Of a stretch of DNA of 50,784 bases, positions 1,300-50,772 are shown piece after piece. Every line of letters starts with the position of its first letter. Position 1 is the first letter of the stretch. The stretch is from a virus (Duplodnaviria > Caudoviricetes). The stretch lies in IMG/VR virus record IMGVR_UViG_3300037424_001831, positions 1 to 50,784 of that record; one strand, written 5' to 3'. The notes beneath the pieces are model-generated. The model saw only the letters and a list, made by a program, of their open reading frames with translations, had not been told where the DNA came from and searched no databases. Position numbers and translations under genes: made by a program.

Positions 1300-1532
1300 G
1301 CTTTTTCTTCATTTAAAAATTCGTTTACCTCTTCTTTTGTTGGAACGCCAAGGTTTTCATTACAGTGATTACATATTTTAACAACATCCATTGAGCCTGG
1401 TCTCCAACTAAAGTAGCCAACGTGGTATTCACTATGTGGACACTCACTTCTTAATTTATTAAGTTCTTCTTGTAGTGATTTTATGGTATCATAAATTTCA
1501 TCTACTCTCTTACGTGTATCCTCGTTATTCAT
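1296..1532 (-). CDS. Small coiled-coil plus putative Zn-binding protein (CxH...CxxC); paralog of 26881..27111
   Basis: The ORF overlaps both neighbours; motifs ECPHSEY and KICNHC. Confidence 0.7.
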   Translation of the reverse strand: MNNEDTRKRVDEIYDTIKSLQEELNKLRSECPHSEYHVGYFSWRPGSMDVVKICNHCNENLGVPTKEEVNEFLNEEKA

Positions 1533-31838: not shown

Positions 31839-32775
31839 ATACTTTATTTCTATCTTCGTCAAAAAAGTATTCTTTCTTAGCAAGTTCCACCCAAAAAGAA
31901 GTTTCCTGAGCGCTAACTCCCCCTTTTTCTTCTGGGATAGCTGCGATGTTATTAGGAACTTTTGAAGATGAATGACTAAATTCTTGTACACTGTTTACTC
32001 TGAAGTCATATCCAACTCTTGGAACTGTCATCATTTTAACATCATTGTAAATCATCCTAAGGAAAAATTCATAATAATGACTAATCTTGATACTCTCCTT
32101 CATGGGGCATAATCTACCATCTTTGTCTTCGCTGTATTCTTCTAAGCTACTAACTCTGAATACACCTCCAAGTGGATTTGCGCAGTTAAATCTTAAAAGA
32201 AGATTCATATCGAATCTTCCAGCTTCTTCAGAAATTCCTTCAGCCCAACAAGCTTCATTCATTAAGCCAGTTAAGGCTCCATTTTGGAAATTTCTAATCA
32301 TAGGTAAGAAGAATCCTACTTCTTCATTCTCCTTCATGTATACATTAGCGATGTTGTACCACTTGGCCCCAACTGCATCATCAATTTCGATGACAGAAAA
32401 AGCTTCATAGCCACCATTAAGCGCTAAGTTAAATAATGTATTGAATACTTTTGAGAAATTGCTAACTTCAGTTTTGATGATATTCACATCAACACTACCA
32501 TTAGCATCAATTATTTCTTCATTAACCGTTCCATCTTCAGCTGTCTTAACAGTTTTGATGGTTGGTTTTTTAGCTATACCCATCAAAGACTCTATTTCTT
32601 TGTTGGACAAGCCAGCATCCAATATAACAACGTCAACTGGATGGGTTTGATTAGCAAGGCCAAAAAGGCATTCTGCCAATTGACCTTCATGCTTAATCTT
32701 ATCAAGGTATAATCCTACAAGGATATTATTGCTTGAAGCTTTCAAGTTCTTTAATTCTTTCATCTTTATATTCAT
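31813..32775 (-). CDS. Divergent GT2-fold glycosyltransferase-like protein
   Basis: ECLFGLANQT..VDVVILD, SVIEIDD, YEFFLRM...VPRVGY. Confidence 0.55.
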   Translation of the reverse strand: MNIKMKELKNLKASSNNILVGLYLDKIKHEGQLAECLFGLANQTHPVDVVILDAGLSNKEIESLMGIAKKPTIKTVKTAEDGTVNEEIIDANGSVDVNIIKTEVSNFSKVFNTLFNLALNGGYEAFSVIEIDDAVGAKWYNIANVYMKENEEVGFFLPMIRNFQNGALTGLMNEACWAEGISEEAGRFDMNLLLRFNCANPLGGVFRVSSLEEYSEDKDGRLCPMKESIKISHYYEFFLRMIYNDVKMMTVPRVGYDFRVNSVQEFSHSSSKVPNNIAAIPEEKGGVSAQETSFWVELAKKEYFFDEDRNKVYEQQPQEQ

Positions 32776-33919
32776 TTAAAAGTTTGATTATATTATCTTT
32801 TTCTCCCTCAATGGTGTACTTGCTAAGAGTTTCTTCGTATTTAGACTGGATGTCTTCTGAATCCATATCACCATTAAGCCATTTGTCAATAGCAAGACCT
32901 AAGATTTCTGCAGTCTGGAAAATGTCTCCATTATTACACCAGAAACCATTTTCATTGGTCATATATTCTTTGCCACCAAATGAAGCCCATCCAATAGTGT
33001 GAGTTCCAGAAGCCATAGCCTCAAGTGGAGCCGTACCAAATCCTGCAATGTCATCGGTGTATAAATAGAATGCACAAGATGCAAGTCTCTCAGCAAATTG
33101 TTCTCTATCCATCCCTTCAAGCTCCTGGAATCTAATCCACTTAAGATGTGGGTAGAATGCATAGAAAGTCTTGATGATATTGTAAGTCTTCAACTTATTT
33201 TCTGGACCTCTTGATGCAGAGAAAGCTACCATAGGTAGTTTATCAGATACTTTTTCGGGAACCTTGAAGATTTCTCTATTGATTCCTTGTTTAAAATCTT
33301 TTACGTGAAGACCTGGCATAACTGACACTAAGTATTCAGTGATTGCATCAGACGCAGAGATTACATCTCTGATTCCAAAGTGCTGCCACTTCTCTCCTGG
33401 CTGCATCGCATTTAATACGTAGAACCAGCTTTGTGCAAACACAATTCTCTTACAAGAAACTTGCATTGTCTTTTTCATTACATCAGGAAAACCTTCTGGA
33501 ATGATTAAAAAATCTTCTGGATTTACGCTAAGCGGAATACATGCTTGAGTGGTTCCGTCATTGAACGTAATATCCTTATCGCCAAGAGGCATGATTTTGA
33601 TATTTGAAATATCAAAGTCAACCCACTTAGGATTGAATTTGTCAAAAATATCAACTTGCTTCTTAGCTTTTGTTGAAGCTTCGTATGAAGCTCTTTGGTC
33701 GTGTCTTGGCTCGTAAACAAGCGTTACATCAAAACCATTGTCGCTAAGATTTTTAGCTGCTCTTAGTAAAACCCCAACTCCCCCACTTGGGCCGTTCATT
33801 GGCGGACAATAGAAATAAGTCTTAAAAGTGTTATCTCTGAGCTTACCGATAGCGTTGTCGATAATTTCATTTTGATTAGGTGCTTTAACCTCATCTTGTA
33901 CTTCAGTATTCTTTTCCAT
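32726..33919 (-). CDS. GT-B (GT4-like) glycosyltransferase
   Basis: PSGGVG N-terminal loop, IIPEG, and AGFGTAPLEAMASG motif. Confidence 0.75.
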   Translation of the reverse strand: MEKNTEVQDEVKAPNQNEIIDNAIGKLRDNTFKTYFYCPPMNGPSGGVGVLLRAAKNLSDNGFDVTLVYEPRHDQRASYEASTKAKKQVDIFDKFNPKWVDFDISNIKIMPLGDKDITFNDGTTQACIPLSVNPEDFLIIPEGFPDVMKKTMQVSCKRIVFAQSWFYVLNAMQPGEKWQHFGIRDVISASDAITEYLVSVMPGLHVKDFKQGINREIFKVPEKVSDKLPMVAFSASRGPENKLKTYNIIKTFYAFYPHLKWIRFQELEGMDREQFAERLASCAFYLYTDDIAGFGTAPLEAMASGTHTIGWASFGGKEYMTNENGFWCNNGDIFQTAEILGLAIDKWLNGDMDSEDIQSKYEETLSKYTIEGEKDNIIKLLNEYKDERIKELESFKQ

Positions 33920-34006
33920 GAAATTTATTTATTTCGATTAATTTTAAAGTGTTATAGCGTATCGAAATAAATATATAAAGCCCCAGAAGTAAAATAAATA
34001 GTTTTT

Positions 34007-34042
34007 AAAAAAAAAGACCAAGAAATTAAATTCTTGGTCTTT
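34007..34042 (-). terminator. Strong intrinsic terminator
   Basis: 12-bp perfect inverted repeat AAAGACCAAGAA/TTCTTGGTCTTT followed by a long U tract on the minus strand. Confidence 0.75.
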
Positions 34043-34054
34043 CTAAATTTATAA

Positions 34055-34245
34055 TTGTAGCAACTAAAGAGAGTCTAACAGCAAGCCAGACAATAGAGGC
34101 TCGTCCAGAGTTGGGTCCTGTCTTTCGACTTTCCAGACCCTCGTCCTGCCTCAGAAGACTATGAGTCTGCTGGGTCTTGTGTATAGTTCACGCAGGGTTA
34201 CTGGTCTACTCTCACTAATATTAACCCTTTTTCGTGTCGCTACAA
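34055..34245 (-). ncRNA. Candidate ~190-nt structured RNA of unknown family
   Basis: GC-richer intergenic island with a 10-bp closing stem UUGUAGCGAC/GUUGCUACAA (the G-U pair works only on the minus strand), several internal helices, a GAAA tetraloop and a possible pseudoknot, immediately before a terminator. Confidence 0.55.
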
Positions 34246-34252
34246 AAATAAA

Positions 34253-35110
34253 TTATGCGTTATCCTCTGTTGAGTCAACGTCTTTTACATTCGAAAGGTC
34301 TTCACCAACGGTATCACCATCAACTACAGTAGAGAAGAATGCGTCATTCGTCATGCTATTCATTGTCATTGATTCAAGAGTCACATCTCCAAGTGAAGCT
34401 GATGCCATGTAGGCAGTGTTGCTCATCTTAGCTCTTGACATAATACCTCTTGAAAGGGTTGTTGAAGCTGCGCTTGCTCCACCAGCTGTAGAAGCATAGT
34501 TGATTGAGTTACCAGCAGAGATTCCAAATCTACTTGCAGTAAGAACCGCATCTTGATTAGCCCCCATGTAACTAAATGTCCATGCACCACCTTTTTCAAG
34601 TTCGTTGATAACTTTCTTGATTGATTCTGCATTATGTTCTCTTGATGAGTTTTCTTCACCATCAGTCATAATAACAACAAGAGCTGTTGAGATGCTGTCG
34701 CTTTCCTTATCTTTCTTGCTCAAGTGAGTTTTAAGATTTGAAATACCTACTCCAATAGCATCATGAAGTGCGGTTCCGCCTCTTGGCCCAAATTCAGAAC
34801 CATCAAAATCTTTAACATCAGAGATAGGTGTGTTTTCCATAATTGTATCAATCTCTGTATCAAATACCACAAGAGAGACAAAATATCTTTGTTCTGGATA
34901 TTTTTCTTCAAGGTGTCTAATTGTTCCAAGTTGTTCGTTAAGCCCGCTGATTGTTGAATTCCAGCATGAGCTCATTGACCCACTTCTATCTAAGATAAGT
35001 AAATAGTGTGTATCAAGGTTTTTGTCTACCGTAGTAGTTGTCACAACGGTTGTAGTCGTTGTTGTTGTAGTAGTCTTCTTTGTAGAAGATTTCTTTTTGC
35101 TTTTAGCCAT
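34253..35110 (-). CDS. von Willebrand factor A domain protein with Lys/Thr-rich N-terminus
   Basis: MIDAS motifs LDRSGSM, GGTALHDAIG and IMTDGEENSS. Confidence 0.85.
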   Translation of the reverse strand: MAKSKKKSSTKKTTTTTTTTTVVTTTTVDKNLDTHYLLILDRSGSMSSCWNSTISGLNEQLGTIRHLEEKYPEQRYFVSLVVFDTEIDTIMENTPISDVKDFDGSEFGPRGGTALHDAIGVGISNLKTHLSKKDKESDSISTALVVIMTDGEENSSREHNAESIKKVINELEKGGAWTFSYMGANQDAVLTASRFGISAGNSINYASTAGGASAASTTLSRGIMSRAKMSNTAYMASASLGDVTLESMTMNSMTNDAFFSTVVDGDTVGEDLSNVKDVDSTEDNA

Positions 35111-37874: not shown

Positions 37875-38744
37875 TTATCTATTTTTTACCTCAAAAACCC
37901 AGTCTATTAGGTTTTTCTCAGCTTTCCAACCTAATATCTCTTCGGTATCAGAATAGAACTCTTCAGAAGTAAATCGTTCTCCACGTCTTTCAGGAATTAA
38001 TTCCCAATTATCTCCAGAAAACATCTTGGCAACATCAATTATAGATTCATTTTTCCCTGAGCGAAGATGCCATTCTTTATTCAAATTCAAATGAGTTGTC
38101 ATCTCAACTCCACGAACAATGTCATCTACATGAGTAAAATCTCTTGATTGAGTCCCTGGGCTGACAACTGTAAGCTTTTTTCCCTCATGTAATTGTCTCT
38201 CAAAAATACCAATAACAGTAGCATAGTCTCCGCTCATAATTTGGCCAGGTCCATACACATTAAAAAAGTAGCAAATCTCATACTGAAGTCTGAACCAATC
38301 GTGATAGTTTTTTATAAGCTCTACCATTTTAGCTTTAGCCCAAGAATATGGACTTAGGTTTTCATCGGCCCCATTATTTCCAAATTTAGAACTACTTGCT
38401 GAATAGATTAACTTTGCATCCTTTTCAAGGCAATATTGGAGGACTTCGCTGGTTCCATACAAATTTGCTTTCATCACATATTTCCTGTCATCAAAAGATT
38501 TAACAATCCTTGAGTATTCTCCAAAATGAAATACGATGTCTGGGTTAAATTCTGTTGTAAAAATTATGCCATTTATATCCCAAGTATTAACATGATAATA
38601 CTCGACTCCCTCAATGTGATTATTTTTACTCCCAGTAAAGTAATTGTCAATTCCTCTTATTTCCCAACTTGGATGGGTTTTTCTAAGGTGTTTGATTAAA
38701 TTGGTCCCAACAAAACCTGCAGCTCCAGTTACGAGTACTCTCAT
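37875..38744 (-). CDS. NAD-dependent sugar epimerase/dehydratase (extended SDR)
   Basis: [27 protein letters not shown]. Confidence 0.85.
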
Positions 38745-39802
38745 TCGTGCTCTAAGTCATATTTTACCATTCTCTCAACAAGTTCATCAAGGTCAATCTT
38801 TGCCTCCCAACCAAGAACAGCCTTAGCTTTTGATGGGTCTCCAATTAATCTATCAACCTCTGCAGGTCTAAAATACTTAGGGTCAACATCAACAAGTAGT
38901 TTCCCTGTTTTTTTATCGTAACCCTTTTCATTAACTCCCTCGCCTCTCCATTCAATTTCCCAACCAAGGTGTTTGGCGGTCATTTCAATGAATGTTCGAA
39001 CCTTATAAGTTCTACCAGTAGCAAGAACAAAATCTTCAGGCTTATCCTGCTGAAGCATTCTCCACATACCTTCAACATACTCTTTAGCATGCCCCCAATC
39101 TCTCTCAGCATCCATATTACCTATCTTCAACACATCACGCTTACCCTTTTTTATTTGAACCATGTTGGTTGTAATCTTCCTTGTGACAAAAGTCTTTCCT
39201 CTTCTCTCACTCTCATGATTAAAAAGAATACCATTACATGCAAACAAATTATATGATTCACGATAGTTCTTGATAATCCAAAAACCATAAAGCTTAGCAA
39301 CTCCGTAAGGACTTCTTGGATGGAATGGTGTATTCTCATCGTAGAAACCTTCGTTGTTCTTGTTGTATTCAAGGCCTCCATAGAGTTCGGATGTAGAGGC
39401 TTGATAGAATTTTGCCTTAGGACAATGAGCTCTCATTGCCTCTAATATCGTAAGAGTCCCAGTTGCATCAACTTGTGCTGTGTAGTGAGGGACTTCAAAT
39501 GATACCTTAACGTGAGATTGTGCTGCAAGGTTATAAATTTCATCTGGTTGTACCTCAGAAATTATTCTCATTATATTTGTTGGGTCAGTGATGTCACCGT
39601 GGTGCAAATACAAATTTGGATGGTCCATGATGTGGTCAATTCTCTCCGTATTGAATGTACTGGCTCTTCTAATAATTGCATGCACAACATAACCCTTGTC
39701 AAGCAAAAGCTCTGCAAGATAGCTTCCATCCTGCCCTGTAATTCCTGTTAGGAAAGCTGTTTTTAAGGAACCACTTCCATCGCTATATAATAATCTGCTC
39801 AT
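38741..39802 (-). CDS. gmd: GDP-mannose 4,6-dehydratase
   Basis: [60 protein letters not shown]; start set at ATG 39802. Confidence 0.95.
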
Positions 39803-39803
39803 C

Positions 39804-39962
39804 TTAAAATTTTTTTCCAAATATGTCAATACCTTTTGCGTGACTTAGCAATCCAATATGTATTGTTATAAAGGGTAGGTTGATGTCTATCGAGTAACTA
39901 TCAACCTTAATCATTAAGCCTATCTGCCAATGTGCGTACATTGAAAATCTGTATTGTCCCAT
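39804..39962 (-). CDS. 52-aa hypothetical protein (not in the ORF track)
   Basis: [52 protein letters not shown]; TAATG-coupled to the upstream gene and exactly fills the gap to gmd. Confidence 0.55.
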
Positions 39963-41149
39963 TACTTAATTGCGTCAATTACTGTTTTACAAATGAATTC
40001 TATTTCATCTTTACCAAGCTTAGGGTGATTAGGAACATAAATCCCACACTCATCAACTGTAGATGCATTAAGAGTTTCGTGTCTGCCATATCTACTTACG
40101 AAAAAAGGTTGAGTTCCCATAGAGCCGCAAATAAGCGGCCTTGTCTCAACATCGTTTTCTATCAAAGCTTTAACTGCCTTATCCTTATCTTTTTTGTTTT
40201 GAAAAATCATTGGATAGCAAAAGGATGCTGTAAAAGAATCTTTGTGTTCAGTTGGTGTCCAAACTCTCTTTTTTTTGTCGTAAGATTTCATGGTATCCTG
40301 GAAGTGGTAGAAGTTTTCGTTTCTTGTATCAATCATCCCATCAACCTTTCCAAGTTGACCAATCCCAATTACCGCTTGAAGGTCTGTTGAGCGAACATTA
40401 AATCCTGGTTCATAGAAAGTATAAAGAGCGGAAAAATCGTCAATTCCCCACTTAGCTCTCAATTTTTTTTGCGTTTCTTCGTCAAGGTCTCTATCCCACC
40501 CATGACTTCTAAGCATTTTCAATAGATTGTAAACATCTGTATCATTTGTACAAATCATTCCACCCTCAATTGTACTCATTGTATGTCCGAAGTAAGTTGA
40601 GAAAGCTGACATGAGCCCGAAGTTTCCAAGTTTCTTTCCTTTAAATTCTGTACCCTGTGACTCACAGTTATCTTCAAGAAGGATAACCCCGTGTTTCTGA
40701 CAAAGCTCAACAATCTTATCCATATCTGGAGAAAGACCAAGAACGGATACCAAAATCATTGCTGCTGGTTTATGGTATTTGAATATTGACTCAAGCTGCC
40801 CTGTGTCAACAGCGAGATTTTGTAAGTTACAATCACAGATAAGTGGGTCGAATCCAAACTGAATGACAGGAGCCATGTCAGTTGCCCAAGCAAGAGCTGG
40901 AACCACTATTTTTTCATTTCTGAGATTTCCCATCACCTTAAGAGCATAAAGCATAAGAAGGTTGGCTGAGGAACCAGAATTTACAAACACACTATGTTTA
41001 CAGCCAATCCAATCAGACCACATTCTCTCAAACTCAATAGTCTTAGGCCCTTTGGTAAGTCTTGGGTAGGTTTTAAGCCACTCAATTAAGTTGTCCACAT
41101 CGTCTTTGTCGATGGTATCTTTAACAAGGGTGATTTTCTCTTTTATCAT
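39962..41149 (-). CDS. colD: PLP-dependent GDP-4-keto-6-deoxy-D-mannose 3-dehydratase (ColD-like, DegT family)
   Basis: VNSGSSANL, LEDNCES, and FSTYFGHTMSTIEGG with His at the usual Schiff-base Lys position; RSHGW; flanked by gmd and fcl-like genes. Confidence 0.75.
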   Translation of the reverse strand: MIKEKITLVKDTIDKDDVDNLIEWLKTYPRLTKGPKTIEFERMWSDWIGCKHSVFVNSGSSANLLMLYALKVMGNLRNEKIVVPALAWATDMAPVIQFGFDPLICDCNLQNLAVDTGQLESIFKYHKPAAMILVSVLGLSPDMDKIVELCQKHGVILLEDNCESQGTEFKGKKLGNFGLMSAFSTYFGHTMSTIEGGMICTNDTDVYNLLKMLRSHGWDRDLDEETQKKLRAKWGIDDFSALYTFYEPGFNVRSTDLQAVIGIGQLGKVDGMIDTRNENFYHFQDTMKSYDKKKRVWTPTEHKDSFTASFCYPMIFQNKKDKDKAVKALIENDVETRPLICGSMGTQPFFVSRYGRHETLNASTVDECGIYVPNHPKLGKDEIEFICKTVIDAIK

Positions 41150-41193
41150 CTTTCATATCATTTTACTAATAATATGAAAATGAAACATAATAA

Positions 41194-42117
41194 TCAAGTT
41201 GTTTGTTTCCAGGTTTGTTGTAAAATAGAATAAGTTGAACCTATTCCATGATAAAGTCTTGTGGCTTTAAATTCTGGGAGCAAACTATTCATCTTATCAA
41301 TAGAGACATCCTTTCTAAATTGTCCATCTGGCTTCGATGTATCATACTCAATTTTAAGATGAGTTGCATCACACACTCTAAGAGCTGTTCTTGCAATGTC
41401 ATCAATAGAAACATTTTGTTCGGTAGCAACATTAAAGCTATCATATATTTCTTCGTCAAGACATCTCTTTATAACTTTTGCAAGGTCACTTGAGTGCATA
41501 AACTGTCTAAGTGGAGTACCCGTTCCAAAGAGAGTTATTTTCTCATCACCATTAACTTTTGCTACATGAATCTTTTTTATTAGAGCTGCAACAAAGTGAC
41601 TGTTTTCTCCAAATTTATCATACTCACCATAAAGATTGCATGGAGTTAGGTATTGATACTTTGTTCCATACTGTTTGTTGTAAGCATCAATCTGAACTGC
41701 AAGACTACGCTTAGCGTATCCATATGAAAAATTAGTTGGAGTTGGCGGTCCCTGGTGCAACATATCTTCGGTCATTGGATAGTTGCCAACTTGGTCTGGG
41801 TAAATGCATGTACTCAATATTCCAATAAACCTCTCAACACCAGTGTGTCTTGCGTACTCAACAAGAAGGGTGTTCATCAAAACGTTGTCTGTAAAGTATT
41901 CTCCAGGCTTATTAATGTTGTCTATAATTCCACCCACTTTTGCTGCAAGGTGTATTACTGTGTGTGGCTTGTGGTCGTGATACATTTGAGCTACACCTCT
42001 TTCTGAAGTGAGGTCATAATCTGAAGAAGATAGGTAGATAGCGTTTGGCATGATTCTCTTTAGAGACTTGCCGACCATCCCACTTCCTCCTGTAACTACA
42101 ATTTTATTTTTCTCCAT
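41194..42117 (-). CDS. fcl: GDP-L-fucose/colitose synthase (epimerase-reductase)
   Basis: TGGSGMVG, HLAAKVGGI, STCIYP, YGYAKR, PCNLYG, HFVAALI, GTGTPLRQF, KPDGQ; start set at ATG 42117. Confidence 0.88.
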   Translation of the reverse strand: MEKNKIVVTGGSGMVGKSLKRIMPNAIYLSSSDYDLTSERGVAQMYHDHKPHTVIHLAAKVGGIIDNINKPGEYFTDNVLMNTLLVEYARHTGVERFIGILSTCIYPDQVGNYPMTEDMLHQGPPTPTNFSYGYAKRSLAVQIDAYNKQYGTKYQYLTPCNLYGEYDKFGENSHFVAALIKKIHVAKVNGDEKITLFGTGTPLRQFMHSSDLAKVIKRCLDEEIYDSFNVATEQNVSIDDIARTALRVCDATHLKIEYDTSKPDGQFRKDVSIDKMNSLLPEFKATRLYHGIGSTYSILQQTWKQTT

Positions 42118-42742
42118 TTCTAATTCTATTATAAAGTTCAAAGTCTTCTTTGTACAAATTCTTAATCCTGTTCATTAAGTTCTCATCTTTCTTGATTAAC
42201 TCCAAGGCTTTAGCAGACCTTGAATGGTTTCCTTTTTGCTTGTGCTCCAACTTAGAGTTTATATCATATTCTTCGCACATTTTTGCAAAATCAGTACTCA
42301 GCCTCTCAAATACAAGCACTTTGTCAAACTTAAAATCTTTACCATTTTTATCACAAAAATAGGCTACTTGTGGTGCTGTATGAACTTCGGTAAAGCCATC
42401 CTTCTCAATAATATCAATAAATGATGTTATTAACTTAGGAATATCACTCACAGATTTTAAATCTCTTATATTTTTAGGTGATTCTCCTCTTTTTATACCT
42501 TCAAAAACACCAGACACAAATCTGTTAAGTGGGTCCCGAACAATTGTAAAAGTTCGATAATCTCTTTTTTCTTCAGGTAAATTTCCCATATAAATAATGG
42601 AACTTTGACCATGCTTTGCTATGTTCATAAAATGGCGCATACTTGTTGATGCTGTCTTTGGAATTCCGACATAAATTAATTTGTAATCAGGGGATGCCCA
42701 TCCGAGACCATTATGACCTATCACTTTTTCTCCGTAATTCAT
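42104..42742 (-). CDS. Sulfotransferase (Sulfotransfer_2 family)
   Basis: PAPS-binding motifs IPKTASTS and FTIVRDPLNRFVS. Confidence 0.8.
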   Translation of the reverse strand: MNYGEKVIGHNGLGWASPDYKLIYVGIPKTASTSMRHFMNIAKHGQSSIIYMGNLPEEKRDYRTFTIVRDPLNRFVSGVFEGIKRGESPKNIRDLKSVSDIPKLITSFIDIIEKDGFTEVHTAPQVAYFCDKNGKDFKFDKVLVFERLSTDFAKMCEEYDINSKLEHKQKGNHSRSAKALELIKKDENLMNRIKNLYKEDFELYNRIRNGEK

Positions 42743-42744
42743 CT

Positions 42745-43527
42745 TTAAATCTTAATCCAACCTTCGCAATAAAGGTCATTTGTATTATAACCTGCATATG
42801 CAGGTCCAAACCACTCATTTGGAGCAACAACAATCTTATCCAAATTATTGTTAAGCCAAGCTCCCCACCACGAAAATGTTGAGTTGCAAATAATGTTGTT
42901 CTTACAATGACTCATAATATATAAATCTTCATAATCCTTGTTACCTTCTATGAATCTGAATTTCTCTGGAAGGTCTGGAAAATTATGCTTACACCATTTA
43001 ATGTCATCGGAAAATATAAGAAAAACTGAATCCTTTGGCATTTTCTTTATTGCCTTCATGAAGTAATTCATATCCTGAACTGGGTGATTATTTGGATACT
43101 TCAAGAAATCGCCTCTTCTAATATGAATTGAGCATGTATTTTCATTATTGAGTAATTCTTTGAGTTCATCGCTTAAATCAACATCATACGACATGAACAT
43201 ATTTCTTATGTCATCTTCACAATCCTTAAAGTATTTCTCTGACTGAAAATATCCAGTCAGAAGGAGGTTTCCAGGATACTCTGGAAGCTCTTGGTAGTGA
43301 AATACCTGCTCCTGGTATTGTGCTCTTGGGCCAGATGGTGTCTTATATAAATCAATATCCTTAAAAATATTGTTGTTGTATGTTGTTACATGCTGATGTG
43401 GCCCTGATGATTCCTGGCAATTAAACCCAGCTGTCCTGCCATACCTCTTGGCATAAGCGTATGCAGCCGCAACTTGGAACATATAGTTTCCAAGACCTCC
43501 CATTAATATTGCTGAAACTTCTTTCAT
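42745..43527 (-). CDS. GT11 alpha-1,2-fucosyl/colitosyltransferase
   Basis: GGLGNYMFQ, GYFQSEKYF, HIRRGDF, NSTFSWWGAWL. Confidence 0.9.
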   Translation of the reverse strand: MKEVSAILMGGLGNYMFQVAAAYAYAKRYGRTAGFNCQESSGPHQHVTTYNNNIFKDIDLYKTPSGPRAQYQEQVFHYQELPEYPGNLLLTGYFQSEKYFKDCEDDIRNMFMSYDVDLSDELKELLNNENTCSIHIRRGDFLKYPNNHPVQDMNYFMKAIKKMPKDSVFLIFSDDIKWCKHNFPDLPEKFRFIEGNKDYEDLYIMSHCKNNIICNSTFSWWGAWLNNNLDKIVVAPNEWFGPAYAGYNTNDLYCEGWIKI

Positions 43528-44621
43528 TTTAATAACCCTTTCTTTCTAAATTCATCCAAAGAATTCTCGTAGTCATTATAAGAAATTTCCCCCTTAGAAT
43601 CAACCCAATCAACAAATTTTTGAATTCCTTCATCAAAAGAAACCTTAGGTTCAAACCCAATTTTTCTAATCTTAGAAATATCTGCAAAATTATGTCTGAT
43701 GTCGCCCTTCATACTTTCTCCAGTAATATTGATGTTAGAGCTTGAATCATATTTCTCCTTGAGAGTCTGGGCCACCTTAAGGACTGTTGTTGGAACTCCA
43801 GAACCAACATTAAACACTTCTCCGTTTGCAAAATCACTTTCAATGGCCAACACAATACTATCAACTACATCATCAATGTAAACGAAATCCCTCGACATCA
43901 TTCCATCCCCGAAAACCTGAATGTCTTTTCCATTTTTAAGTGCCGTTGAGAATATTGATAGTATCCCCGTATATGGGTTTTTAAGAGATTGACCAGGACC
44001 ATAAACATTTTGAAACCTTAAGGCGCAAACTGGAGTATCTGGAAAGCCTGTAAATAAAATTTGTTCCTGTGCTAACTTTGTGATAGCATAGATGGAGCGT
44101 GGGTCTTTATCATCTGTCTCTTTGGTTGCAATTGGATTTCCGTCTTCATCCAAATTCGCCTCACCATAGACAGCTCTTGATGATGCGAGAATAACTTTCT
44201 TGGTCTTAATCGGCCCATCCATAAACATTAAAACTTCGCTACCATCTCTATCTTTGTGAATACATGTAATCAACTCTTTGTTTTTTCCTTTAATCAAAAG
44301 GTCGTTTAAAGCGGCTATAGTTCCAATATTGGTGTTACAATATCTTTGAGCCTCAAACATTGATTGCCCAGTTCCAGTCTCTGCAGCAAGGCAAATAATT
44401 GCATCAAATTCACCTTGTCTTAAAATACCCTGTGTTCCCCATGTAGTAGCAGCATCTCCATTAACAAAATGATATACGAGGTCAGAAATTTCGCTTCTCT
44501 CTCTACCATGTACTTGTGGAGACATGTTATCAAGTACAAAAACCTTGTGACCATCTTTCACAAGGCGTTTGCATAAGTGGGAGCCAATGAATCCTGCTCC
44601 ACCTGTTATCATTATATTCAT
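43524..44621 (-). CDS. NAD-dependent epimerase/dehydratase
   Basis: TGGAGFIGSHL, LAAETGTGQSM, YAITK, NVYGPGQSLKNPYTG. Confidence 0.85.
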   Translation of the reverse strand: MNIMITGGAGFIGSHLCKRLVKDGHKVFVLDNMSPQVHGRERSEISDLVYHFVNGDAATTWGTQGILRQGEFDAIICLAAETGTGQSMFEAQRYCNTNIGTIAALNDLLIKGKNKELITCIHKDRDGSEVLMFMDGPIKTKKVILASSRAVYGEANLDEDGNPIATKETDDKDPRSIYAITKLAQEQILFTGFPDTPVCALRFQNVYGPGQSLKNPYTGILSIFSTALKNGKDIQVFGDGMMSRDFVYIDDVVDSIVLAIESDFANGEVFNVGSGVPTTVLKVAQTLKEKYDSSSNINITGESMKGDIRHNFADISKIRKIGFEPKVSFDEGIQKFVDWVDSKGEISYNDYENSLDEFRKKGLLK

Positions 44622-45319
44622 TATTTTTTAATAAAAAGTGCAAGTTTGTTTGGACCATACATAGTTTCTGGCAAGTCGTACATTATGCAATCCTTAATAT
44701 TTTCATTCAAGTAAGCCATCTCATCTGATGTCATAAACTCACTCTTCACATCTTTTGTCTTAATGTAGTTCTCAATAACATTAACCGTAGTGTTGCTTCT
44801 GTCAGCATTTATGTCGAGAGGTTGTCCGTATAAATCTTTAAACCCATTGTGTGGCCAAAAGGATGTGTGAAGGTCTTCTATGAAATATAACCCACCGCTC
44901 TTTAGGTGTTTAAACATGTATCCAAGGCTTATTTGTTGTTGCCCCATCATATGGCCACCATCATCAATTATAATGTCAAATTCCCCAGCTGCATCAACAA
45001 CTCTCTGAAGGTCTTCACGCTTTGTTTGATTTGCGATGTAAGTGGTAACCCTATTTGTGTCGTGTTGTTTACTATTAACAATATCAATTGCATGAATTTT
45101 TGCCTTAGAAAAATACTCTGGCCACATCTTAAGAGAAGGGCCAGAACCGATACCTATTTCCAAAAAATTAATATCCATATCTCTAATTGGTTCCATATAT
45201 TTATTATACACAGTAGTGAAGTGTAATCTTGGTCCATGGTGACCTATGGCTGGAGCAATAGTCCCTTTATCTGATGCGTACTTATTTGCAAGTGCGCTTA
45301 GTGCGTCAGTTTCTTTCAT
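44621..45319 (-). CDS. Class I SAM-dependent (sugar O-)methyltransferase-like protein
   Basis: SDK, LEIGIGSG, DIIIDDGGH and GGLYFIEDL (MycE/TylE-like pattern). Confidence 0.75.
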   Translation of the reverse strand: MKETDALSALANKYASDKGTIAPAIGHHGPRLHFTTVYNKYMEPIRDMDINFLEIGIGSGPSLKMWPEYFSKAKIHAIDIVNSKQHDTNRVTTYIANQTKREDLQRVVDAAGEFDIIIDDGGHMMGQQQISLGYMFKHLKSGGLYFIEDLHTSFWPHNGFKDLYGQPLDINADRSNTTVNVIENYIKTKDVKSEFMTSDEMAYLNENIKDCIMYDLPETMYGPNKLALFIKK

Positions 45320-46002
45320 TGTATTTTTAATTTAAGATATTCTCTCTCTTGTTTTTCTTTATTCTTGTCAATCCAGCCACTCACCTGCTCATCATGCATT
45401 CTAATGGTAATATAAACATTTTTTTCATCACCAACAATAATTGGAGAACCATATTTTCTATTAAGTCTCTGGTGCATGTCATGGTCATTGATGATAATAA
45501 GATTTTCATCAAATAATTCTGGATTCTCTTTATCTAACTTAAAAAAGGATACACTTGGGCATCCTATCACTGTTTCCATACTTGGAACAATTATTCTTCT
45601 AACCCCAGGATTTTTACCTGTCTCATAGTTGTGATTAAATACTACAGCTCCCCACTTGGCATTAGGATTTCCTTCCAGACTATTTGCGATATGCTCAAGC
45701 GTTAGTGGATTAGTCATAACATCATCCATGTGCATCACTTTAATTACGTCACCAGTCGCTCTCTTGATTCCTTCATTCATGTTAATGGAACTATTTCCTT
45801 TGCCTCTGTTATTATAAAAATGATTAATGTTTAAGCTATATTTTTTGCACAAATTTTCTACTTCCTTATTTGATGAGTGGTCTGCAACAATAATCTCATA
45901 ATCTTTATGAGTTTGATTGGAGATACTATCAAACAACTCAGTCATAAGAACAACTGCACGACCTTTTGCTTCATAAGCTGGTATAACTATTGAGAATTTC
46001 AT
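45316..46002 (-). CDS. GT2 glycosyltransferase
   Basis: FSIVIPAY, YEIIVAD, NEGIKRATGD, MHMDD. Confidence 0.82.
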   Translation of the reverse strand: MKFSIVIPAYEAKGRAVVLMTELFDSISNQTHKDYEIIVADHSSNKEVENLCKKYSLNINHFYNNRGKGNSSINMNEGIKRATGDVIKVMHMDDVMTNPLTLEHIANSLEGNPNAKWGAVVFNHNYETGKNPGVRRIIVPSMETVIGCPSVSFFKLDKENPELFDENLIIINDHDMHQRLNRKYGSPIIVGDEKNVYITIRMHDEQVSGWIDKNKEKQEREYLKLKIQ

Positions 46003-46796
46003 ATGATTTCTGAAATTTTATTCTTAAGAACAATTGAAATATCAGAAAGCTCAAGGCCTCTCTTATAATTTTCTTCGATATAAGGAAGCATATTCTCGTA
46101 TGTATTCTCACTTAAGTTATTACAAGCATCAATAATTTCATCTACATTATCGACAATTATAAATCCTCTTGTATCAAACCAGTCACCAACATTAGGGCAA
46201 CCACAATAAATCGGAACTGTTTTTGTCACCATGCAATCAACTAACTTCTCTGTAAACCAATTTAATCTCTTAACATTTTCTATACAGATGTGAAATTGAC
46301 TATCAAATAAAGGTTTTTTATCAGCGCCAAGAACTGGATTATTGTTGTAGTTCTCTATTCCACCAAAATTACCACTCAAGAAAAAATTTTTTGGAGCTTT
46401 AATCTTATTTTCTCTAAACCAAAGTTTTTGTCTAAGGTGATGACCTGGGGCCATAAGTTTTCCGCCAACAAGAGTTGATACGGAGAATGATTTCTCAGGA
46501 AACTCATAGTTCTTAATCCAGGTAGATGCAAGTGGCATTACAAATGACTTTCCAGGTATAGCATCAAGTAATTCTTGGTTGTGTGTGAACAAGTAATCAA
46601 ATGTACCAGAATTAAATGCATTCAATGCGTGTTGAGTAAGGTTTAAAATTTCGGGTGGTTCTAACAAATACACAAATCTAATTGTTCCACTTGGAACCTG
46701 GTCTCTTGGAATTTGGTCAACATATAATTCAATCTGCTTATCATGCTCAAGGTCAATTTCCAAATCCCAGCCGCAATATATTTTTATTTTCTTCAT
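45999..46796 (-). CDS. GT10-like (alpha-1,3/4-fucosyltransferase fold) glycosyltransferase
   Basis: FHICIEN...FTEKLVDC...TVPIYCG matches the alpha-1,3-FucT motif. Confidence 0.72.
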   Translation of the reverse strand: MKKIKIYCGWDLEIDLEHDKQIELYVDQIPRDQVPSGTIRFVYLLEPPEILNLTQHALNAFNSGTFDYLFTHNQELLDAIPGKSFVMPLASTWIKNYEFPEKSFSVSTLVGGKLMAPGHHLRQKLWFRENKIKAPKNFFLSGNFGGIENYNNNPVLGADKKPLFDSQFHICIENVKRLNWFTEKLVDCMVTKTVPIYCGCPNVGDWFDTRGFIIVDNVDEIIDACNNLSENTYENMLPYIEENYKRGLELSDISIVLKNKISEII

Positions 46797-46952
46797 TTAG
46801 AAATATTGTTTAATCAGTTCGTAGTCTTCTTGTTCGTACTCAAAATCAAGGTCTTCATCATAAAATACCTTCATATATAGCGAGAATCTTTTTTTTGCCC
46901 ATTCAGTATAAGTCTCAGGGACACTTCCGTTTCCGTTGTAGTAAAAATTCAT
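46797..46952 (-). pseudogene. Orphan glycosyltransferase C-terminus (51-aa ORF), paralogous to the end of 48310..49200
   Basis: MNFYYNGNGSVPETYTEWAKKRFSLYMKVFYDEDLDFEYEQEDYELIKQYF aligns without gaps, 25/51 identical by hand count; ATGA-coupled upstream and abuts the next ATG. Confidence 0.75.
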
Positions 46953-47164
46953 TCTTCATTCAACTTAACTGCAATTCTTGCCTTAGTTCTATTTGCCATC
47001 GTAAGCAACGCTGCTGAATATCCAGCATAAACATCGTTTATCATTTCAGAATCGCTCTTTTCTTTTTTCTTGTCTTCGCCTATTTGTTCCATTTCATTAA
47101 CCAAATTAACTAATAATTCTATCACCTCTTTTTTGCCAAGCGTTTCCAGGTCTTTATAATTCAT
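46949..47164 (-). CDS. 71-aa helical hypothetical protein within the endonuclease cassette
   Basis: ATGA overlaps on both sides. Confidence 0.6.
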   Translation of the reverse strand: MNYKDLETLGKKEVIELLVNLVNEMEQIGEDKKKEKSDSEMINDVYAGYSAALLTMANRTKARIAVKLNEE

Positions 47165-48135
47165 ATCTTTAATTTTTTGATGTATTCATTTTCACTACTC
47201 TGAAATCCGAGTTTTACCGAAGCTTTGACTAATCCTCCATGATGATTTTGGATTCCCCTAAGAAGTGCTCCCATATTATTTTCCTTAAGATACTTGTAAG
47301 TTGGAAATGCGCCCAGACTTTCACAGATAGTAATTAATTCCATCTCCACATTGTTCCAATCTTTCCAATAATTATATGGTTTAACATCTATTTCAAAACC
47401 AAGCTCTTTAGAAATGTCAGACATACTCAATTTATTGTTCCATATAAAAATCACATGTCTTTTAAAGCTATTTTCAATCCACCACCTTTGCGCAGGAAGC
47501 TTATCGAATCCACGATTTATACACTCGTCACGCATTTCTGATAAAATCATATTTTTATCGTAAGAATCGAACTCTAAAAGTTTATTGACATTCGCATCAT
47601 ATGAATTATTAACCATGATACCATGACTTCTAAAAATAGAAACTAACTCATTGTTTATTTCTTGCAAAGACTTTTTGAATAATTTTCTATCTAATCCAAT
47701 AAGACTTAAATTCTCAGATTCATACACAGCTTCCTTAAGTAATTTTGTCTTGTTATATTCTTTGTTTCTCAATCCCCAAATTTCTATATAAAAACCTTCA
47801 ACTTTAAAATCAAATAAGTAATTATAGTTATCTGAAATTTTCCCTTCATACTCATAGTCCAGGTCATTCAAATAAAGGAAGTTATCTAATATAACTTCGT
47901 ATGTTGACTTTACTATATTTCCAGATGGAGTCTTAAGTTGACTTGATGTATTAAATCCAAGTTTTTTAGAAACTTCAACCAAACCTCCATGAAGTTTTAG
48001 AGCGTGATTAAGACCTTTTATCTCTAAAACCTCACGAGTAGTTAACATTCTCCCAAGTTCATTACACTTCGGCAGTAAAAACTCTTTTAAAGTTTCAAAA
48101 TCATTCCAATGTCCATTAGCTCTTTTTTTCATCAT
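47161..48135 (-). CDS. PD-(D/E)XK-type putative homing endonuclease with repeated helical DNA-binding modules
   Basis: STYE..LDNFL...YEYE...LFDFKVEGFYIEIWG nuclease core; repeated units HWNDFETL...HGGLVEVSKKLGF and YWKDWNNV...HGGLVKASVKLGF; start set at ATG 48135. Confidence 0.7.
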   Translation of the reverse strand: MMKKRANGHWNDFETLKEFLLPKCNELGRMLTTREVLEIKGLNHALKLHGGLVEVSKKLGFNTSSQLKTPSGNIVKSTYEVILDNFLYLNDLDYEYEGKISDNYNYLFDFKVEGFYIEIWGLRNKEYNKTKLLKEAVYESENLSLIGLDRKLFKKSLQEINNELVSIFRSHGIMVNNSYDANVNKLLEFDSYDKNMILSEMRDECINRGFDKLPAQRWWIENSFKRHVIFIWNNKLSMSDISKELGFEIDVKPYNYWKDWNNVEMELITICESLGAFPTYKYLKENNMGALLRGIQNHHGGLVKASVKLGFQSSENEYIKKLKI

Positions 48136-48274
48136 TTTTCTTTTGACCTTCAATCCACTTGGAAATGAGCAATTCAACAAGACGAGATTTATTTATTGCA
48201 ACCTTAGATGCAAACTCTTCAAACTCTTCAAGAACAGAGTTAGATATATTATATGTTGCTCTCTTTTTATTCAC
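48116..48274 (-). CDS. Ribbon-helix-helix (CopG/Arc-like) DNA-binding protein, 52 aa (not in the ORF track)
   Basis: GTG start; MNKKRATYNISNSVLEEFEEFASKVAINKSRLVELLISKWIEGQKKNDEKKS shows the beta-strand, helix, NKS-helix RHH pattern; overlaps the endonuclease start. Confidence 0.7.
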   Translation of the reverse strand: MNKKRATYNISNSVLEEFEEFASKVAINKSRLVELLISKWIEGQKKNDEKKS

Positions 48275-48289
48275 TTTTATTCCCTTTTA

Positions 48290-48297
48290 AATAAATA
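48290..48297 (-). promoter_or_regulatory. TATTTATT variant of the late-promoter motif before the RHH-endonuclease pair
   Basis: One mismatch to TATTTATA, 15 nt upstream of the GTG. Confidence 0.4.
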
Positions 48298-48309
48298 GTA
48301 ATTAAAATT

Positions 48310-49200
48310 TTAAATTAAGTCACCTAATGCTTTTTTTGTTGTTTCATAAATTTCTTCGTCAAAACTAACGCCCACATCTTCATTGTAAAACAACTTCATA
48401 TATAAAGCATACCTTTCTTTTGCCCAATCAACGTATGTAGTCGGAACATTACCTGGACCATTATTTACAAAATTTTGGCCCGACCCAATTCCAGCAAAGT
48501 GAATTATCTTATTTCCGAAGTCATAAAGCTCATTCATCTTTGGAAAACCGTTGTCTGAATTTCCTTGTTCATCTGCACACCCATAATCTTTGAAGTTGAG
48601 GTAAAACATTTTTCCTCCATTTTTGATAATGTCAAATGACACTGGGTCAAAAAAATCAATTATAGGGTATCCAAACGGATTGTAATACCCAACTACCATC
48701 CTATGTAGAGTGTTAAATTCATAGTTACTTATTTTCTCCAGATTTATACCAAGAAAATATGTACTCACTGCATCTGGGAGTCCAAGGCCTCTAACATCAT
48801 CTCTCCCACACTTATTGTTCTCATAAGGCCTTCTCGGACCAACAAGGTCATATCCTTCATCAAATTTGTTTAAAATATCAGACAAGCACTCATCCCTAAA
48901 TATTACATCACTGTCAATTTGGATTACTTTCTTATAATTTCCATATTCACCCTTAAGAACTTTTGTCCATATGTATGATGTGCCGAGATGCCCCTGTTTA
49001 AAATACTCTCTTACTTGTTCATCAGTAGATAGTTCGATGTATTCATTATTATTATGCTTCAGCGCTGCTTTAAAATCTTTATGAGTTCCAAAGATATGAA
49101 TCTTGGCATCATGATGCTCGTGGAATGATTCCAGCATTTTATTTAGAACCTTTCCACAATTATAAGCAATGGTAAATATGAAAACATCTTTATTCTTCAT
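48310..49200 (-). CDS. GT-A fold glycosyltransferase
   Basis: FTIAYNCG, QIDSDVIF (DxD) and IIHFAG; start set at ATG 49200. Confidence 0.72.
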   Translation of the reverse strand: MKNKDVFIFTIAYNCGKVLNKMLESFHEHHDAKIHIFGTHKDFKAALKHNNNEYIELSTDEQVREYFKQGHLGTSYIWTKVLKGEYGNYKKVIQIDSDVIFRDECLSDILNKFDEGYDLVGPRRPYENNKCGRDDVRGLGLPDAVSTYFLGINLEKISNYEFNTLHRMVVGYYNPFGYPIIDFFDPVSFDIIKNGGKMFYLNFKDYGCADEQGNSDNGFPKMNELYDFGNKIIHFAGIGSGQNFVNNGPGNVPTTYVDWAKERYALYMKLFYNEDVGVSFDEEIYETTKKALGDLI

Positions 49201-49954
49201 CGTATAATTTATCAAGTGTGCTATAAGTCGGCCTCCCCCTGAGAATACCTTCAATTCTATTAATTTCCGACTGACTAATTTTAGATTCATTCATTGGATT
49301 CTCTCTATTGTAAACATAAAGAATATCTGGAATATATCTGCTCTTATCAACCCCGCACATCTCAAGCATTGGGAATTGAAATGATAAATCTGGAGCCATA
49401 GAAACATAGTCCCCAGTAGATGGGTCCTTCATGTCATCTGGATTTATCTTCAAGAAAAGCTCTCTCCTAAACGTTCTTAGGTGACTCGCAAGCCATCTAT
49501 GCTGTCTGAATGTTTTGTTCTGACGAACCTCAAGCGGGTATTCATGATAATGTTGTGATACATCTCGATAAGGAAATTCTTCATAAGTTCCATAGGTCAT
49601 CCAACAATCGTACTTATTGTATTCTTGGTTTATTCTCGACAACACATCTCCATGAGGAAACCAATCATCTCCATCAAGTGTAATCACAATAGATTTTGGT
49701 TTTGACATCTCTGTCCCAATTCTAATATTTTCACCCTGATACTTTCTTTGCTCATTCTGAAGTACCCGAATATTATCGAACTTATCGACATATTCAAGAG
49801 CTTTCTCATAGGTTCCGTCATTTGATTGTGCATCCAGGAATACAATTTCGTAATCAGGGTAGTTCTGGCTAATAGCGCTATCAAGACATCGTTCTACATA
49901 TTGAGCTGCATTTCTTGTGCTGATTACAATTGATATGTGGTTAATATTTGCCAT
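49190..49954 (-). CDS. GT2 glycosyltransferase
   Basis: SIVISTRN..YVERCLDS, DAQSNDGT, LDGDDW, SHLRTF. Confidence 0.85.
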   Translation of the reverse strand: MANINHISIVISTRNAAQYVERCLDSAISQNYPDYEIVFLDAQSNDGTYEKALEYVDKFDNIRVLQNEQRKYQGENIRIGTEMSKPKSIVITLDGDDWFPHGDVLSRINQEYNKYDCWMTYGTYEEFPYRDVSQHYHEYPLEVRQNKTFRQHRWLASHLRTFRRELFLKINPDDMKDPSTGDYVSMAPDLSFQFPMLEMCGVDKSRYIPDILYVYNRENPMNESKISQSEINRIEGILRGRPTYSTLDKLYDEE

Positions 49955-50772
49955 TACTTAAATTTTTTGATAGCCTCAGCCTTTAACATAATCATTTCCT
50001 TTTTTTGCTCAAGATTCATTGACTTAAATTCGTTTTGAATTTTTAACATTCCTGAAATGTATGGATTATCGTTCCATGTTGGCGGGTGGAACATGTGGTA
50101 AAGCTCAATGTCAGGAGCATCTGAAGTATACATCTTGTCAATAGCATTCACTTTCTCCCAAAAGAAAGCATCCTCTGGGGAGTTGGCCAAGAAAAACTCT
50201 GGGTCATAACCGCCAATCTCAAAAAACAAATCTCTCTCAATTGTTATGGAACCACCTGGGGCTCCAATTATATGTGGAGGATTTACTTCATTAAGTTCAA
50301 CACTCAAGTCATCAACTTCAAATTCTCCAGCTATGACTTTTTGGGTCAACTCTGGATTAATATACAAAACTCGCCTTCCTGTAAAATTTTGAATTGCTCT
50401 TGCCTTTTTGTCTCTTATATTTTTAAATAATCTCACGAAAAAATCTGATTGCATTAAACAGTCAATGTCATGGAATAAGATGTATTTTGACTTAGATGAG
50501 AATAAGGCTCCCATATTTTGAGCCAAGCACTTATTAAAGAGCTCGCCTGGCTCGGATTTAATCCAGATATAGTTTAGCCTATTCTTCTTGCAAAATTTTG
50601 AGTGTTCTGGATTTTCGCTATGCTCAACCATTGTATAAGAAATCTTTAATCCAGATTTTGCGGCAGCCACAGAAAAACTCTTATACATAGGTTCTGCAAA
50701 ATCATTTCTACCCCTTACAGGAATTATCGCACTAACGTCAAATAAATCCATAGTATCATGTACTACAGACAC
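49954..50772 (-). CDS. GT2/GT7-like (galactosyltransferase C-terminal domain) glycosyltransferase
   Basis: IIPVRGR, FNKCLAQNMG, FHDID, GGYDPEF...PED, HMFH. Confidence 0.78.
   Translation of the reverse strand: MSVVHDTMDLFDVSAIIPVRGRNDFAEPMYKSFSVAAAKSGLKISYTMVEHSENPEHSKFCKKNRLNYIWIKSEPGELFNKCLAQNMGALFSSKSKYILFHDIDCLMQSDFFVRLFKNIRDKKARAIQNFTGRRVLYINPELTQKVIAGEFEVDDLSVELNEVNPPHIIGAPGGSITIERDLFFEIGGYDPEFFLANSPEDAFFWEKVNAIDKMYTSDAPDIELYHMFHPPTWNDNPYISGMLKIQNEFKSMNLEQKKEMIMLKAEAIKKFK

Follow-up and report, generated by a model that had tools for sequence, protein, structure and literature searches.

The locus and its structured RNA element

The window, that is, the whole stretch of 50,784 nucleotides analysed here, is a virus record of 50.8 kb that carries a baseplate-J-like gene as well as a long glycosylation cluster, in which a run of nucleotide-sugar and glycosyltransferase genes (GDP-mannose dehydratase, epimerases, GT2/GT10/GT11 and sulfotransferase) extends along the minus strand from 37875 to 50772. 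The element studied lies on the minus strand at 34055-34245, starting 7 nt past the stop codon of a vWA-domain gene, and a terminator-like hairpin begins 12 nt downstream of it. Its spacer of 333 nt is the longest among the 12 spacers of more than 60 nt in the window and, as the preliminary description had claimed, the GC-richest (0.47 versus 0.16-0.36 in the 11 others). Every motif quoted in that description was found in the element, which has a minimum free energy of -60 kcal/mol (z -2.4 relative to shuffled sequences, 2 of 200 of which were equally stable). The features, all on the minus strand, are as follows.

34055..34245, minus strand: whole RNA element in permutation type A, with optional closing stem (homolog alignment, covariance models)
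34236..34245, minus strand: closing stem, 5' arm, optional and missing from 3 of 11 clade copies (clade alignment)
34055..34064, minus strand: closing stem, 3' arm (clade alignment)
34214..34235, minus strand: core hairpin of 2 bp plus a GAA/AUUA loop-E-like motif (both base pairs covary)
Within 34214..34235, minus strand: core hairpin loop, AAA plus pseudoknot strand GGGUUA (34222-34227)
34195..34213, minus strand: long irregular helix, 5' strand GAGAGU-AGAC-CAG, followed by the pseudoknot partner UAACCC (34195-34200)
34172..34194, minus strand: YG(C/A) linker and AANACC segment (34172-34178), both conserved, with an optional small hairpin (34179-34191) between them
34087..34169, minus strand: stem CAGAC/GUCUG bearing a clade-specific peripheral domain of about 70 nt (the other permutation opens at this stem)
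34069..34082, minus strand: long helix, 3' strand G-CUG-UUAG-ACUCUC (clade alignment and 32-copy parse)
34007..34042, minus strand: terminator-like hairpin and U run (sequence and clade comparison)
34253..35110, minus strand: vWA-domain gene upstream of the element, given as context (PF00092 match at E 1.2e-4, narrowly short of the curated threshold)
32726..33919, minus strand: downstream glycosyltransferase gene, context and marker for finding relatives (PF00534)

The terminator-like hairpin is not counted as part of the RNA because it is found in the clade both with and without the element. An AT-rich motif, ACUAUUUA ... UAUAUUUA (33960-34000, minus strand), lies 5' of the glycosyltransferase gene, is kept in all clade members and is probably a phage promoter.

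Gain, loss and covariation in the clade of the window

We collected relatives of the locus through its two flanking genes. Among the eight closest vWA loci in IMG/VR, three carry the RNA (L002 and L003, which are identical, and the short L004), L001 retains a remnant of about 50 nt and four run directly from the stop codon to the terminator, whereas the other 72 vWA loci searched gave no significant match to the element. With the downstream glycosyltransferase as marker, the element was found in 11 of 30 metagenome loci, representing nine distinct sequences, two of them without an upstream vWA match; remnants are present at L001/L230 and L242. These collapsed remnants (L001 3772-3825 and L242 upstream of 282) retain the ends of the closing stem and short pieces of the core, so that L001 and L242 indicate loss by internal deletion. 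At L236 (about 2250-2275), the vWA gene has apparently been deleted, its acidic C-terminal tail being fused to the upstream gene, and a minimal RNA is kept.

These distributions bear on the earlier suggestion that the element could be a partner RNA of the vWA protein, which they do not support. The close vWA relatives L005-L008 lack the element and L001 has only the remnant, the clade copies L236 and L243 have no vWA match upstream, and the 21 copies outside the clade neighbour tRNAs, a cold-shock-type gene, nrdF, hypothetical genes or an intron, where the context is readable. A partner RNA of the vWA/Ro60 type was dropped accordingly, as the presence of the RNA does not track that of the protein gene.

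Across the 11 clade copies, 90.2% of the cells of the structure are paired and 23 of 47 pairs vary on both sides; none of 500 shuffles did as well, a test that kinship among the copies inflates, and slid controls reached 36-42%. The closing stem and the middle domain of about 70 nt are both optional, leaving a shortest core of 81 nt; the minimal copy (L236) measures about 80 nt, and insertions are tolerated at four peripheral points.

Most helices proposed in the preliminary description were borne out by this 11-sequence alignment. Two-sided changes occur in nine of the ten pairs of the closing stem, but L233, L243 and L246 lack it, and in two of the seven pairs of AGGGUUA/UAACCCU; the long-range helix GAGAGU/ACUCUC and the GUC-GAAA-GAC hairpin are likewise upheld by the homologs. 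The alternative folds proposed for GGGUC were settled in favour of the downstream GACCC partner (four of five pairs with two-sided changes). The upstream AGACCC fold is not upheld because AGACCC stays constant while GGGUC varies together with its downstream partner. In both the GUC-GAAA-GAC and the GGGUC/GACCC stem, compensatory changes from U-A to C-G come from at least two independent sequencing runs. On the other hand, the homologs pair AGAC with a distal GUCU rather than within the proposed AGACU-CAU-AGUCU hairpin, and they lend no support to CGAGCC/GGCUUG. The repeated GGACGAG is indeed present in the window, although it lies inside the optional domain and is lost in L239. A role as a CsrA sponge was rejected, since the GGA repeats are lost in L239 and the domain is optional. 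The earlier description had included neither the 2-bp helix of the loop-E-like hairpin nor the CAG/CUG helix, and had not confined the conserved core to some 80-100 nt.

The peripheral domain consists of GAGGC/GCCUC, GGGUC/GACCC and a GAAA tetraloop and is missing from L004, L236, L243 and L246. Within it (34096-34152, minus strand), two similar YUGRANRAG/CAG internal loops are embedded in a structure held by compensatory changes; the domain with these loops and the tetraloop also occurs in L002, L232, L233 and L237-L239.

A family of phage RNAs in two circular permutations

We then used the short forms as blastn queries against GenBank phage records, where the matches fell mostly at unannotated intergenic sites. 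A query with the RaK2 copy returned 68 records at E ≤ 10, 24 of them matching over 80% of the query. The element was present in 21 of 24 fetched GenBank regions, or 19 distinct ones without two near-identical Cellulophaga copies; the fetched regions L460 and L466 do not contain it, and L461 is the group I intron case described below. Two distant viral copies, L279 and L331, came from looser pattern searches. In total, 32 distinct copies were parsed: the clade of the window supplied 11, other uncultured viruses two and GenBank phage records 19. The recorded hosts of these phages are Klebsiella, Escherichia, Proteus, Pectobacterium, Erwinia, Pseudomonas, Vibrio, Rhizobium, Cellulophaga, Prevotella, Bacillus and Microbacterium, which belong to four bacterial phyla. 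The family is carried by Mosigvirus and Demerecviridae relatives of T4 and T5 and by cultured, tractable phages, including mogra, grown on E. coli K-12, with one copy per genome in the whole records searched. The copy in a Lak phage is divergent (model R1, E 0.9, one pseudoknot mismatch) and could be decaying.

Two parts make up the conserved core of about 80-100 nt: the loop-E-like hairpin, the loop of which engages in a 6-bp pseudoknot, and a long helix that covaries throughout. In the 21 copies of type A, that of the window among them, the order runs from the core hairpin through the 5' strand of the long helix, the pseudoknot partner and YG(C/A) to the optional hairpin, AANACC, the variable stem and the 3' strand of the long helix. 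Type B (11 copies) begins with the 3' strand of the long helix, and the variable stem is both the point at which it is opened and the stem that closes it. Covariance model R2 matches the window at 34066-34235 (E 3e-18), and model R1, built from type B only, matches it at 34176-34274 (E 2.5e-6, a rough value).

For type B alone, the helices were recovered by RNAalifold, whose covariation term was -5.36 kcal/mol; with the pseudoknot included, 96.5% of cells are paired, 13 of 21 pairs show two-sided changes and the covariation score is 0.648, compared with 0.178 for shuffled and at most 0.086 for slid alignments. The pseudoknot itself is paired in 97% of cells in type B and covaries in type A; several of its pairs provide no covariation evidence because they are invariant, while the outer pairs covary. 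The long helix has 5-8 bp in all 32 copies, and a strand forms on average 6.3 bp with its own partner versus 3.4 with the partners of others (19 distinct partners, 29 copies). L453, L459 and L462 lie outside the 29-copy counts because in them a second ACCC segment out-paired the first. The bulge-side pair is C-G in 20 copies, G-C in 11 and A-U in one, and each of the two pairs flanking the GAA/AGUA motif, which is loop-E-like, occurs in at least four forms; AGUA replaces the AUUA of the window in 20 of the 32 copies. The covariation includes G-U pairs and the loop-E-like motif, which points to a fold formed at the level of RNA. The residues after the pseudoknot strand are UGC (14), CGA (13) or UGA (5), and an AG immediately 5' of the pseudoknot 3' strand together with a G at +2 is present in 32 of 32 copies when the parsing pattern requires both, and likewise in all of the 29 (of 32) copies that could be parsed when it does not. 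Minor segments of L239, L279 and L452 were misassigned in the 32-copy parse.

Sequence sets without the element

No Rfam 15 family accounts for the element. At gathering level, Rfam 15 returned zero matches in the window, as did ARAGORN, and in sets of 15 and 18 homolog loci nothing but tRNAs and the host intron; at E ≤ 10, the window and its homologs yielded only terminator-driven or unrelated weak matches, with no ribozyme model scoring. The earlier proposal of a novel structured RNA with a pseudoknot, for which an Rfam search and a covariation analysis of homologs had been suggested, is thus strongly supported both by covarying helices in the homologs collected and by the absence of an Rfam family. 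We found no description of the motif in the open-access literature searched, and the family is a real, naturally circularly permuted and apparently undescribed phage RNA.

Within the sets searched, the family is restricted to phages. A GTDB pattern scan produced 12 loci, none genuine, plasmids gave three weak matches, of which the one fetched (L466) lacks the motif, and E. coli genomes gave no match. The covariance models found no copy in two samplings of bacterial genomes (0/151 and 0/151), with 24-27 candidates scored per genome and no positive control. Exact-pattern scans of IMG/VR returned mostly chance matches, with one new copy among 43 and one among 119 loci in two scans and none in four others, one of which covered 29 of 64 parts; a descriptor run across all loci collected by then recovered only known copies. 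The element was not found in phages T4 and T5. The single model match in T5 (E 0.005) lacks the motif on inspection, and weak matches in T5, at a second Lak site and in L297, L008 and L460 were rejected on inspection or for want of a model match. L460 (1464-1551), a tRNA-Ser of a 595-kb phage whose record has no model match, has a run of 19 nt in common with the core of the RNA, which is probably a coincidence.

Several other identities were set aside. Resemblances to RNase P, retron, SRP, 6S, HEARO, hairpin ribozyme and sarcin-ricin mimic RNAs were discarded, since the order of segments does not fit and Rfam gave no match. An antiterminator was dropped because the terminator is independent of the RNA, and a riboswitch because the element occupies spacers between tRNAs, 3' UTRs and the loop of an intron rather than 5' UTRs, and because the clade terminator is unchanged whether or not the RNA is present. 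The window has no RF00028 match, which disposes of a group I intron.

Genomic contexts of the two permutations

Type B copies lie mostly inside tRNA clusters. In 5 of 11, no more than about 10 nt separate a tRNA 3' end from the start of the element, and the spacing to the upstream tRNA ranges from about 4 to over 100 nt. The mogra copy occupies the spacer between tRNA-Met and tRNA-Arg, closed by its own stem and flanked at either end by 4-5 nt. Copies of type A come after stop codons, often ahead of a terminator-like hairpin, and by eye the copies of the window, Cellulophaga and Eldridge lie between the two; the Eldridge copy follows nrdF, the L331 copy follows a cold-shock-type gene and the Pumpernickel copy precedes a tRNA. 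Judged by eye from translations, the L331 copy (1100-1300, minus strand) is immediately preceded by the cold-shock-type gene and immediately followed by an HNH gene, and at L279 (9-557, minus strand) a GIY-YIG-like ORF is divergent from the copy.

In Klebsiella phage VLCpiM5b, the element sits within a group I intron (RF00028, 69.8 bits, E 1e-15) that splits the DNA polymerase gene, as cargo between the core elements of the intron (L461). The intron is unannotated (L461 1390-1694; ON602729.1). The loop holding the element, which we take to be the P6 loop, contains a 5-bp hairpin with a tetraloop in one sister intron and an HNH ORF in another. The rV5-like relatives differ at this site: the same intron carries an HNH gene or a LAGLIDADG gene, has nothing in its loop, or is missing.

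These positions suggest two explanations in which the RNA would not act in trans. A cis-acting stability or processing element, in which the pseudoknot would be an exonuclease roadblock protecting the upstream mRNA or would space tRNAs for host RNases, fits a compact pseudoknot found often just past stop codons or between tRNAs. We consider it improbable, however: the 3' end in the clade is already guarded by the terminator hairpin with or without the element, a directional nuclease block should be lost on permutation, and such an element would have no clear role within the intron loop. A selfish or DNA-level element spreading with homing endonucleases, from which the phage would not benefit, could account for the patchy distribution, for the HNH or GIY-YIG-like genes adjoining the L331, L279 and phi19:3 copies and for the occupation of the intron's endonuclease loop, but is likewise improbable given that most copies have no neighbouring endonuclease, that whole genomes hold a single copy and that the covarying G-U pairs and loop-E-like motif point to an RNA-level fold.

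Possible functions and relation to known RNAs

The RNA keeps its fold across two permutations and a variable periphery, occupies a range of contexts and moves between sites. Because the core is indifferent to position, occurring between tRNAs, in 3' UTRs and in the loop of an intron, action in trans is to be preferred over position-dependent action in cis; and since its gains and losses, at varied sites, resemble those of an accessory gene, the simplest account is an RNA that needs only transcription and release. With hosts in four phyla, a partner would have to be near-universal, which favours a trans-acting decoy. Our leading reading, held tentatively and with rather less than even confidence, is therefore that the element is a compact phage RNA, likely released intact and likely to act in trans as a decoy for a host molecule conserved across phyla. 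It would be expressed within abundant phage transcripts, freed by tRNA processing, 3'-UTR turnover or intron splicing, and protected at its ends by whichever stem closes the given permutation; once released, it would bind a conserved host molecule, which would most plausibly belong to an anti-phage response. It is unlikely, although conceivable, that the element is an RNA-only anti-defence factor, a pseudoknotted RNA with which lytic phages of four phyla would soak up a universal host immune component such as a signalling nucleotide or a tRNA/rRNA-targeting nuclease.

By analogy, the layout of the mogra spacer would support the decoy, being the same as that annotated for the stable RNAs of T4 (rnaC/rnaD) and T5 (RNA I, III, IV, 2H and others), small non-tRNA RNAs wedged among phage tRNA genes. 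These show no sequence or motif match to the family, which in contrast to them is not confined to tRNA clusters and comes in two permutations. GOLLD and ROOL are likewise phage RNAs of unassigned function often found near tRNA islands, but are described in PMC12286853 as far larger (many GOLLD exceed 800 nt) and differ in fold, the family having no Rfam match.

A close rival to the decoy, and in our view nearly as probable, is a new class of self-cleaving ribozyme with a pistol-like topology. Such an RNA would require no partner and would account for both the permutation and the association with tRNAs. Natural circular permutation of small RNAs is, according to PMC10085705, best known from self-cleaving ribozymes, and by that analogy counts against the decoy; hammerhead and twister share with the family two natural permutations and variable peripheral stems, yet have no conserved core in common with it. 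The minimal size of about 80 nt, the tolerance of insertions, the AG and +2 G in all copies parsed and the proximity of copies to tRNAs and homing endonucleases would also suit a ribozyme. As described in PMC6154101, pistol resembles the family in having a hairpin whose loop pairs with a junction strand in a 6-bp pseudoknot, in a purine-G just before the pseudoknot strand and in its association with phages. However, the G40-C41-G42 that follows the pseudoknot strand in pistol is replaced by Y-G-M in the family, the fixed-length G-U cleavage junction between P3 and P2 corresponds to a junction varying in length and sequence, and the family, unlike pistol, has the additional AANACC segment, loop-E-like motifs and no Rfam match.

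The theta (HDV-like) ribozymes provide a second comparison (PMC10879173). They demonstrate that tRNA-adjacent ribozymes occur in phages, which by analogy also weighs against the decoy, and they resemble the family as compact pseudoknotted RNAs adjoining phage tRNA genes. Their nested double pseudoknot is nevertheless missing from the family and the set of helices differs; moreover, theta ribozymes keep a fixed register to tRNA 3' ends, the rule given in the review placing the cleavage site within 5 nt, whereas the distance from core to tRNA end varies in the family, members of which also lie far from tRNAs. The failure of any Rfam ribozyme model to score at E ≤ 10 argues against a ribozyme as well, as does the intact copy inside the intron of the DNA polymerase gene. 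The passages of PMC3088659 examined contain no example of a ribozyme within a group I intron. Cleavage between a stop codon and a terminator-like hairpin, as in type A, would separate nothing obvious, which again supports the decoy. The conserved unpaired residues (several A's, the invariant G after the pseudoknot and ACC) suit a catalytic core as well as a binding pocket.

If the ribozyme reading were correct, the family would be a new self-cleaving class, and if the decoy reading were correct, it would be the first cross-phylum RNA decoy against host defence. In either case, circularly permuted forms are known for few small natural RNAs, among which ribozymes are the best known (PMC10085705), and the family offers a defined, mutable handle on the old question of the role of extra RNAs in phage tRNA clusters, with minimal forms of 80-100 nt that suit cleavage assays, probing and structure determination.

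The AANACC(C) segment (34172-34178 on the minus strand of the window, and present in all homologs) is almost a second copy of the pseudoknot partner, and in L453, L459 and L462 the GGGUUU strand finds better pairing with it than with the first partner; the segment may act as a switch, contribute a base-triple strand or make a dimer contact.
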